DNA from: Alphaproteobacteria bacterium
GTDB taxonomy: Bacteria > Pseudomonadota > Alphaproteobacteria > RF32 > CAG-239
Direction of reading: 5' to 3'
Assembly (NCBI GenBank): GCA_017457005.1
Contig: JAFTII010000009.1
Location: forward strand, 3,392 to 67,391
Length of the DNA: 64,000 nucleotides
Each line of letters starts with the position of its first letter. Within the stretch, counting starts at the first letter, position 1. The notes under the pieces were generated by a model. That model saw nothing but the letters and a program-made list of their open reading frames with translations. It was not told the origin of the DNA and searched no databases. The position numbers and the translations under genes were made by a program. Of the stretch, positions 53,338-54,570 are shown in pieces.

Positions 53338-54570
53338 TTATCTTCCTTTATTGATTTTGGACTGATTGGTTTTAGATTGTATTCCCCTAACATTTCCAGC
53401 TCTTAAGTAGCATTTACCTAAAACTTTACTTAATGAAGCTATATTATCAATTCTACATTCTAAAGATGGATTAGTAATAGGATATAAAACATCTCCCCTC
53501 ATTTGTTTTGTTCTACCATTTGGTGAAGTTATATATTCTTGAAAAGTCCCATCATCTGCGTACAAACGAATCAGATGTTCATCAGCATTTAATGAACAAC
53601 TGGCCAACAATTTATTATCTTTTTTATATTCCATAATGTCATTGCCAAATTTGTTTTTATAAATAGTTATATTGTTAGCGTTAGGCATGATTTCTAAACC
53701 CTTAACATCAACAGATATCTCATTATTTAAGGAATTTGATTGCTGAAATGATGGTATAATATCATTAATATACAAATCTACTCCTTCCCCCCGTGGAACC
53801 AAATTTTTGCTATGAATAAATCTTTCTTGATGTGTAGCTTTTAGATAATTTAATGCATTTGATACATAATTTTGAACTTCTTGATATGTGTATTTTGTCG
53901 ATAAATCTTCAAAAAGTTTATTAGCCCAAGGATTTTTTTCATAATCTTTACCTAAATATTTAGCACCACATTTTTCTGCTAAAAAAATATGACAGGCCAG
54001 TGAGGACAATTGAGTATCATTTATTTCGTTAAATATTAAATTTCTATTTAGAGAAGGAACACCAGCATGACCATAATAAGAGAAAGCAGAATCTTTATTT
54101 TGCTCATACCAATTATCTTTTACGCCTTCAAATCTCATTCCTATATTATTGAAAACATGCATATCTTCAGGAAATTTTACTCCACCTTGCGGAAAATCTT
54201 TTTTATACCTATCACCAAATTGATTATTTAGTTGTTTTGCAATAAATTGTGCTTTATCATATTCTCCGATATATATAGTAAAAACTTTCCCTCCGTCTCC
54301 ACCATTTCCCATCTTAAAACTAACTTCATTATCCATGAGAAATTTTGCAGTATCTTTGATTATAGGATCTGAAACGGTTTTATTATCCTGATCAAGAAAA
54401 ACATGTAATTTCCAAACATGATTATCATCTTTACCTGTTTGAAATTCCATATCTTTAGTATCGGGTGAAAGTTGCAAAAAATCATCAAATGAATGTACGT
54501 AATTTATATGAGGCATATCAACTATTCCTTTATCTAAAGTAATTATAGCAGACATAACCATTAAATTCAA
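53338..54570 (-). CDS. Hypothetical 410-aa protein with OspF/SpvC-like phosphothreonine-lyase motif arrangement in the N-terminal half
   Basis: WKLHVFL, then FKMG 30 residues after the His, then GKVFTIYIG. The likely start is MPHINYV at 54516, after AGGA. No signal peptide. Confidence 0.45.
   Translation of the reverse strand: MNLMVMSAIITLDKGIVDMPHINYVHSFDDFLQLSPDTKDMEFQTGKDDNHVWKLHVFLDQDNKTVSDPIIKDTAKFLMDNEVSFKMGNGGDGGKVFTIYIGEYDKAQFIAKQLNNQFGDRYKKDFPQGGVKFPEDMHVFNNIGMRFEGVKDNWYEQNKDSAFSYYGHAGVPSLNRNLIFNEINDTQLSSLACHIFLAEKCGAKYLGKDYEKNPWANKLFEDLSTKYTYQEVQNYVSNALNYLKATHQERFIHSKNLVPRGEGVDLYINDIIPSFQQSNSLNNEISVDVKGLEIMPNANNITIYKNKFGNDIMEYKKDNKLLASCSLNADEHLIRLYADDGTFQEYITSPNGRTKQMRGDVLYPITNPSLECRIDNIASLSKVLGKCYLRAGNVRGIQSKTNQSKINKGR

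Follow-up and report, generated by a model that had tools for sequence, protein, structure and literature searches.

The gene analysed here lies on the reverse strand of a 64,000-nucleotide stretch of contig JAFTII010000009.1 (assembly GCA_017457005.1) from an Alphaproteobacteria bacterium of the CAG-239 lineage; the whole stretch is referred to below as the window. An earlier note on this DNA had described the gene as an open reading frame (ORF) of 410 codons with the active-site layout of OspF/SpvC phosphothreonine lyases, carried on an islet next to a tRNA gene. The ORF itself is real: 53338..54570 on the reverse strand translates into 410 amino acids from a TTG codon, with HVWKLHVFLDQDNKTVSDPIIKDTAKFLMDNEVSFKMGNGGDGGKVFTIYIGEYD present. 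The TTG, however, is probably not the start. It coincides, at 54570, with the −35 hexamer of a sigma-70-like, TG-extended promoter (TTGAAT-17 nt-TATAAT, 54542..54570, reverse strand; 10 of 12 consensus positions and a TG before the −10 element, by consensus match only), a Shine-Dalgarno sequence AAGGA lies 9 nt upstream of an ATG at 54516, and 16 of 20 close homologs begin at the Met of that ATG. For these reasons, the true product is most likely the 392-residue protein encoded by 53338..54516 (392 codons plus stop) rather than a 410-residue one. Residue numbers follow the mechanical 410-codon ORF throughout, in which the probable initiator Met is residue 19.

The motifs that prompted the comparison with phosphothreonine lyases were verified by translation. 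K54-L55-H56 (54403..54411), within a GWKxH-type motif, is followed exactly 30 residues past H56 by K86 (54313..54315), the predicted general base, and then by V96-F-T-I-Y-I101; the strand K95-V-F-T98-I-Y100 (54271..54288) forms part of a GK..T.Y.G motif. The segment D136...R146 (DMHVFNNIGMR, 54133..54165) ends in R146, the predicted phosphate-binding Arg. All of these, encoded on the reverse strand like the features that follow, fall in an N-terminal domain (N-domain; 53746..54516), supported by AlphaFold2 modelling, Foldseek and profile matches, which comprises a conserved core at about residues 48-207 and a helical extension at residues 208-275 that is specific to the gut-alphaproteobacterial subfamily. 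An optional C-terminal domain at residues 285-391 (53398..53718) consists of a seven-strand beta meander and a long helix, according to the secondary structure of the AlphaFold2 model, and the protein ends in a disordered basic tail at residues 392-410 (RAGNVRGIQSKTNQSKINKGR; 53341..53397), modelled with a predicted local distance difference test score (pLDDT) below 50. The tails of the homologs vary in sequence, yet are basic. The suggestion that some 200 C-terminal residues match nothing therefore needs revision, because the lyase core reaches to about residue 207 and includes the invariant R146-F147, leaving a separate optional domain of only about 110 residues. The window contains a single copy of the N-domain.

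Searched by itself, the protein gave no meaningful match in Pfam (hmmscan, E <= 1), NCBIfam, PADLOC, PHROGs or PDB sequences. Its 20 close homologs, at 57-99% identity, are all unannotated, and those in reference genomes come almost entirely from metagenome-assembled genomes (MAGs) of gut Alphaproteobacteria (Hadza gut, sheep colon, human gut); eight of the nine genome loci of homologs are in gut Alphaproteobacteria/Proteobacteria MAGs. In the alignment of this close family (A1), the N-terminal region at about residues 19-275 is conserved, while the C-terminal region (about 285-391) is missing from three members (P0017, P0019 and P0020) and swapped for other sequence in a fourth (P0016). When the A1 profile was searched against 1.84 billion representative proteins, 109 were retrieved at E <= 1e-3, and the distant relatives among them matched solely residues 48-210. 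Some members of this wider family are small proteins of 200-330 residues and others carry the domain internally, in proteins of up to 6105 residues; the named ones come from Candidatus Paceibacterota, a Woesearchaeota archaeon, Vampirovibrionales and Rickettsiales. No viral relatives were found in a scan of IMG/VR. In BFVD, one viral structure, a Fadolivirus protein of 674 residues named 'glutamine amidotransferase' (A0A7D3V7D7), matched the model of the N-domain marginally (E = 1.6e-3, probability 0.94, 210 columns, root mean square deviation (rmsd) 11 Å). Neither Pfam (2025 copy) nor NCBIfam (June 2026) has a model that covers the family, and a full-text literature search found no description of it.

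Conservation was assessed in a 50-sequence non-redundant alignment of the wider family (A2), whose mean column identity is 19%. Despite this divergence, K54, H56, K86, R146, F147 and G170 are invariant in all 50 sequences, and W53, T98, Y100, G102, Y166, G167 and G202 are at least 90% conserved. T98 is kept in 45 sequences, Y100 in 48 and K95 in 42, and 45 sequences have D or E at position 136. Likewise, among 125 hmmsearch domain hits, K54 is present in 121, H56 in 122 and K86 in 124, and the near-universal motifs are GWKxH, (F/H)K.G.GG..GK..T(I/V)Y(V/I)G, GRF(D/E), (H)QYG..G(I/V)P and YG.(F/Y)YTG. The K-x-H, Lys and Tyr positions proposed as catalytic in the earlier note are thus invariant or nearly so across diverse homologs; because they clearly do not vary, the proposal is not undermined on this count.

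The nearest characterised relatives of the family were found among class III lanthipeptide synthetases (LanKC). The A2 profile matched ThurKC structures in the PDB (8sao, 8sap, 8sam; E approximately 2e-5) and other LanKC enzymes at E-values from 2.2e-5 to 0.046 (9wop/9wj0, the 8w7a group, SalKC 9ugq and 8car), and all of these matches lie in the N-terminal lyase domain. A truncated profile (A4) matched 9wop at 1.7e-5 and ThurKC at 1.1-1.5e-4, and its residue alignment sets GWKLH...fK against ThurKC GWKIH...FK, pairing K54, H56 and K86 with ThurKC K65, H67 and K94. In addition, the Pfam family RamC_N (PF25816) was matched by 31 of the 50 A2 members, with a best E-value of 6.3e-7. The top-ranked A2 matches in the PDB, designed 'Cake/Bagel' propellers, were rejected as artefacts, since their repeats contain TIYVGS and each contributes about 4 bits. 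In ThurKC, K65, H67, K94 and R163 are mutationally essential for dehydration, the K65A, K94A and R163A variants being inactive, and the four residues have been equated with SpvC K104, H106, K136 and R213 (PMC10604976).

The fourth of these residues probably corresponds to R146. R146 falls at position 120 of the A2 profile hidden Markov model, and the ThurKC match in the A2 search ends at profile position 121 and chain position 161, which would place R146 at ThurKC SEQRES 160, that is R163, the equivalent of SpvC R213. The spacing is similar, with 10 residues from D136 to R146, 11 from D152 to R163 in ThurKC and 12 from D201 to R213 in SpvC. A profile restricted to the C-terminal half of the core (A5) finds nothing in the PDB, so the equivalence of R146 with R163/R213, and of D136 with D152/D201, depends on alignment end-points and spacing and not on a residue-by-residue alignment.

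Structure prediction pointed to the same relatives. A full-length AlphaFold2 model (pLDDT 81) gave only weak Foldseek matches of the C-terminal domain to the beta-sheets of OspA and TarM (E >= 0.3). Modelled alone with the A2 alignment, the N-domain reached a pLDDT of 92.2 and a predicted template modelling score of 0.90, and its top two Foldseek matches were both ThurKC (8sam_B and 8sap_B; E = 3.8e-3 and 4.3e-3, probability 1.00, 123-140 columns), followed by a third match at E = 0.34. The order of secondary-structure elements in the model, strand(KxH)-helix-strand(K)-strand(TxY)-helix and then strand(R146), is consistent with the pairing of the motifs to ThurKC and SpvC in the sequence alignments. 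The AlphaFold and Foldseek comparison proposed in the earlier note therefore places the lyase domain of ThurKC on top, a similarity to the LanKC lyase and not, within the best 50 matches, to SpvC structures.

To relate the family to OspF/SpvC, an alignment of 37 diverse SpvC-family members was assembled (A3); the SpvC sequence is 100% identical to one retrieved protein (P0128). Comparison of A2 with A3 by hhalign gave a score of 33.9 over 67 columns (P = 2.7e-4, probability 41%) and paired K54, H56, K86 and T98-Y100 with SpvC K104, H106, K136 and T156-Y158, whereas scores of 9-16 (P 0.15-0.87) were obtained for the reversed control and for eight controls with shuffled columns. With the close family by itself, the alignment to the SpvC family was not significant (P = 0.059). 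The resemblance of the motifs is beyond chance, though at the level of the family only. Taken together with the ThurKC alignment, the conservation and the ThurKC fold match, this pairing upholds the earlier suggestion: the arrangement of K-x-H, Lys and F-T-x-Y is homologous to that in the active site of phosphothreonine lyases.

Membership in the OspF/SpvC/HopAI1 family itself was not borne out. The protein has no match to the family's Pfam model PF03536 (hmmscan, E <= 1), nor is PF03536 among the 25 families most often matched by the 50 A2 members, whereas all 93 true SpvC relatives carry it. Profile searches of the PDB with A2 did not retrieve SpvC or OspF, and the same search with A1 found nothing in the PDB at all, nor did phmmer with a segment of a distant member (P0040). 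An N-terminal basic/hydrophobic D-motif that docks mitogen-activated protein kinases (MAPKs) is present in 'all known phospholyases' (PMC13151050). When residues 19-52 (MPHINYVHSFDDFLQLSPDTKDMEFQTGKDDNHV) were read by eye, no such motif was seen: the segment is acidic, with two isolated Lys and no basic cluster. We place the protein in the phospho-Ser/Thr lyase superfamily but, because both the PF03536 match and the MAPK-docking motif are absent, not in the OspF/SpvC family. Its family is new, as are its architecture and its contexts, within an enzyme superfamily that is known.

These results argue for a stand-alone phospho-Ser/Thr lyase ('eliminylase') from an unannotated family, sister to the N-terminal lyase of class III LanKC and less closely related to OspF/SpvC, a reading to which we assign a probability of roughly 0.6. 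Membership in the superfamily is very likely; lyase activity is predicted from the conserved residues and is probable to a lesser degree. In the mechanism that we propose, K54 and R146, possibly with K95, would by homology hold the phosphate of phosphoserine or phosphothreonine, K86 would abstract the C-alpha proton, and H56, the predicted general acid, would protonate the leaving phosphate. The product would be dehydroalanine or dehydrobutyrine, and the phosphorylation site would be erased irreversibly. Since the protein contains no kinase, cyclase or leader-binding part, its substrates would have to receive their phosphate from another enzyme. Targeting or export may be the task of the optional beta-rich C-terminal domain and the basic tail.

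Several observations weigh against this assignment. The window protein by itself matches neither RamC_N nor any PDB entry, so that the link depends on the broader family profile, and, as described above, the C-terminal half of the core has no PDB match by itself. The Foldseek E-values are modest (about 4e-3) with an rmsd of 4-5 Å, and SpvC and OspF are not among the best 50 matches of either model. Furthermore, no counterparts of SpvC R148 and R220 were identified in the family; K95, conserved in most of the A2 alignment, may be a substitute phosphate ligand for these two arginines.

The genomic setting of the gene was then considered. The tRNA-linked islet of the earlier note is real: a tRNA-Thr gene adjoins, its 3′ end is repeated on both sides of the lyase-like gene, and the guanine-cytosine content drops to 0.28-0.33 across 53-57 kb, compared with about 0.35 for the window. 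The tRNA-Thr(GGT) gene lies at 52885..52959 on the forward strand (ARAGORN; Rfam tRNA, 70.9 bits). Two forward-strand repeat units, one downstream of the gene (53152..53266) and one upstream of it (54656..54770), each consist of the 3′ 18 nt of tRNA-Thr, a hairpin terminator (53176-53201 and 54680-54705, respectively) and about 47 nt of conserved tail sequence. The units are 83-91% identical and bracket a 1.5-kb single-gene cassette that includes the promoter. No integrase ORF of at least 60 codons is evident in the window's own islet.

The same lyase cassette is present in two sister contigs that encode an identical neighbouring META-domain protein (L025 and L027). In a further contig (L026), it is replaced by an unrelated, unannotated gene of 381 codons (7178-8323, reverse strand), while the neighbouring 290-residue protein is retained at 98% identity and the Fic module described below is lacking. 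At the same site in another contig (L029:81-2359), there are genes for a 582-residue tyrosine integrase (Phage_integrase, with DUF6538) and a DUF6626 protein, and this element may be of the kind that built the hotspot. Because the cassette is present or swapped among strains with an identical META protein, the site is an integration hotspot that varies between strains, with the lyase gene as dispensable cargo.

Homologs in other species occupy unrelated loci, which include the junction between rpsJ and tuf, a position next to argS, and one about 4 kb downstream of tRNA-Glu, after genes for an HNH protein and an M15 peptidase. The tRNA-Thr 3′-end repeat does not flank the homologs in other species. 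Neither a kinase, a LanC nor a precursor gene neighbours the lyase gene in the window, and the same holds for eight further contexts; no conserved partner gene (kinase, antitoxin or immunity gene) was found when the contexts were compared. At the rpsJ-tuf junction, which is normally tightly conserved, the lyase gene of one MAG (P0006; L001:7577-9197) is inserted together with an 89-codon RHH_4 gene. Their layout is like that of an antitoxin-toxin pair, but none of the other contexts has the RHH gene. A weak transglutaminase-like neighbour was seen at a single locus, that of P0019.

Other features of the hotspot were also recorded. A broken second copy of tRNA-Thr lies at 52678-52860 of the window, where the first 20 nt of the gene (GCCGCTGTAGCTCAGTGGTA, 52697-52716) and a 19-nt leader are repeated 188 nt upstream of the intact gene and are followed by a degenerate stretch resembling an anticodon arm (gcacgtcattggccaatgacg, approximately 52826-52846). 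This copy is called by neither ARAGORN nor Rfam and is probably the scar of a past integration or recombination at the hotspot. Beyond the upstream repeat unit, an ORF of 290 codons (54828-55700, forward strand) shows by eye a residue order like that of Ulp1/C48 (CE-clan) peptidases, H..D..Q..C (DHAVAMAVD..TIYYHDS ... QQ..NDNSC), a reading that finds no support, as the ORF has no Pfam, NCBIfam, PADLOC, PHROG or PDB sequence match. For a Fic gene at 56326-56967 on the reverse strand, there are matches to NF046029, the NmFic protein-adenylyltransferase equivalog (5.7e-97), and to the PADLOC candidate PDC-S04. Together with an ORF of 91 codons (55955-56230, forward strand), it lies between direct repeats of 85 nt (55710-55794 and 57050-57134; 75% identical), and this Fic module (55710-57134) forms the hotspot's second cassette.

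Proteins of the wider family suggest where such a domain may act. In a metagenomic protein of 1371 residues (P0041), a TrwC relaxase (residues 34-356) and an AAA_30 helicase (512-723) are followed by a C-terminal lyase-like domain at about residues 1069-1180. In another protein (P0048), the domain is joined to a Ppx/GppA-type domain, and it is also found inside proteins of 2000-6105 residues, most of these giant carriers being without any other Pfam domain. Conjugative type IV secretion transports relaxases as its substrates, and the relaxase fusion therefore hints, without proving, that the lyase-like domain can reach other cells. A distinct paralogous subfamily was also observed in gut or rumen Alphaproteobacteria MAGs, represented by P0050/P0254 (771 residues; MBE6467230.1, Alphaproteobacteria MAG E7004), with proteins mostly of about 590-1450 residues. 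Its paralogs of about 770 residues carry the lyase-like domain (WKLHLDVVPNR...HKI..GGENGKGMTIYVG) at approximately residues 490-585 and no other Pfam domain.

Because a conjugative relaxase carries the domain at its C-terminus and giant unannotated proteins carry it internally, we prefer, with less confidence than we place in the enzyme assignment, a trans-acting effector or toxin directed against phosphoproteins of another cell, although targets in another cell are speculative. This part of the proposal has its own counterevidence. The protein has no signal peptide, no secretion system was found among the window ORFs checked, and neither PADLOC nor PHROG gave a match. In addition, small stand-alone copies in Paceibacterota and other lineages lie among housekeeping genes, and a self-directed role fits them equally. 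A bolder version, which we consider possible but doubtful, would make the family a third major eliminylase clade beside the OspF-type effectors of type III secretion systems (T3SSs) and the lanthipeptide-synthetase lyases. It would be a trans-kingdom weapon module delivered into bacterial or eukaryotic cells, carried by the gut Alphaproteobacteria cassettes, by the small proteins of the candidate phyla radiation (CPR), DPANN, Vampirovibrionales and Rickettsiales, and by the relaxase and giant toxin-like proteins as their cargo.

Among the alternatives, the one that survives best is a 'phospho-eraser' acting on the producer's own Ser/Thr-phosphorylated proteins, in regulation or damage control. 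The lack of a signal peptide fits such a role, as do the stand-alone copies of 200-230 residues amid housekeeping genes in reduced genomes, and a SpoIIE-type PP2C phosphatase gene within about 2-3 kb at two loci (L021 and L023) is a hint of Ser/Thr phospho-signalling. However, beta-elimination is ill suited to reversible regulation, as it destroys the side chain of Ser or Thr and a reactive dehydro-residue remains. The gene is dispensable in the window's lineage, being a cassette that varies between strains and sits at differing loci, and the relaxase and giant-protein fusions fit delivery to other cells better. We therefore regard a self-directed enzyme as unlikely.

The earlier note favoured an OspF/SpvC-type effector that is injected into a eukaryotic host, docks MAP kinases and removes the phosphothreonine of their activation loop. 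The alignment of the catalytic residues with SpvC would suit this view, and so would the mobility and AT-richness of the gene, the adjoining effector-like cargo (the NmFic-type Fic gene and the unannotated 290-residue protein) and the life of the organism in animal guts. The nearest relatives by both sequence and structure are LanKC lyase domains, however, and relatives also occur in Paceibacterota, Woesearchaeota and Vampirovibrionales, whose partners are prokaryotes. No T3SS or other secretion genes were found among the 10 large ORFs scanned in the 64-kb window, which are housekeeping genes (HtpG, TypA, MurJ, LeuRS, AddAB, AnmK and glycogen synthase). With OspF/SpvC membership, the D-motif and a secretion system in the scanned ORFs all lacking, a MAPK-directed host effector is currently disfavoured and appears improbable.

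It is very unlikely that the fold is shared but the chemistry is different, or that the domain is a non-catalytic binding module. The missing equivalents of SpvC R148 and R220, and a C-terminal half of the core without a detectable sequence match to known lyases, would agree with such a divergence. On the other hand, K54, H56, K86 and R146 have remained invariant over hundreds of millions of years and match catalytic or phosphate-binding residues of ThurKC and SpvC, and pseudo-enzymes normally lose such residues. Most improbable is one part of a split, lanthipeptide-type dehydratase of a ribosomally made peptide with post-translational modifications (RiPP), which would eliminate phosphate from a precursor phosphorylated by a separately encoded kinase: the closest characterised relatives are indeed lanthipeptide synthetase lyase domains, and split kinase/lyase systems are known in class V lanthipeptides (PMC10604976), but the cassette is one gene between terminators and no adjacent kinase, cyclase, short precursor ORF, protease or transporter was found in the window or the eight other contexts.

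Outside the OspF/SpvC-type family, phospho-lyase chemistry is known only from lanthipeptide synthetases. The stand-alone lyase proposed here belongs to a large unmodelled family that has retained the main catalytic residues (K-x-H, the base Lys and the Arg), yet is free-standing and mobile, spans commensals, episymbionts and predators, and includes one fusion to a conjugative relaxase. If its members are active, irreversible phospho-erasure would be far more general among microbes than thought, and the family would offer new enzymes for the site-specific installation of dehydro-amino acids as well as a testable candidate for the interplay of gut Alphaproteobacteria with their neighbours or host.

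Three known systems serve for comparison. As to the class V lanthipeptide lyases HopA1/LanY, their Pfam family PF17914 does not appear in the lists of families matched by the protein or by its 50 relatives, and HopA1 (4RSW) is not among the best 50 Foldseek matches of the N-domain. With OspF/SpvC/HopAI1/VirA/EseH (VRP3, PF03536), the protein shares the catalytic layout, a stand-alone state without a kinase, and horizontal mobility. In contrast to these effectors, it has no PF03536 match, D-motif or T3SS context, and the relationship is remote only. It is also larger, at 392 residues with an extra domain versus about 240 residues for OspF/SpvC, and its family occurs in MAGs of gut commensals, in CPR and DPANN, and in bacterial predators rather than enteric or plant pathogens.

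The lyase domain of LanKC enzymes (ThurKC 8SAO/8SAP/8SAM; RamC_N, PF25816) is the best match by both sequence and structure. The identity of the protein as a lanthipeptide synthetase was nevertheless ruled out, since it has neither a kinase nor a cyclase domain, its C-terminal domain is a beta meander, and gene-cluster neighbours are absent. Unlike LanKC, the protein of 392 residues has no Pkinase or LANC_like match, no leader-peptide machinery and no biosynthetic cluster. The motifs GK..T(I/V)Y(V/I)G, (H)QYG..G(I/V)P and YG.(F/Y)YTG set it apart as well, and so do the helical extension specific to its subfamily and a C-terminal beta domain that is unrelated. What the two have in common is GWK(I/L)H, an (F/H)K base motif 27-30 residues further on, and an Arg about 70 residues beyond that.

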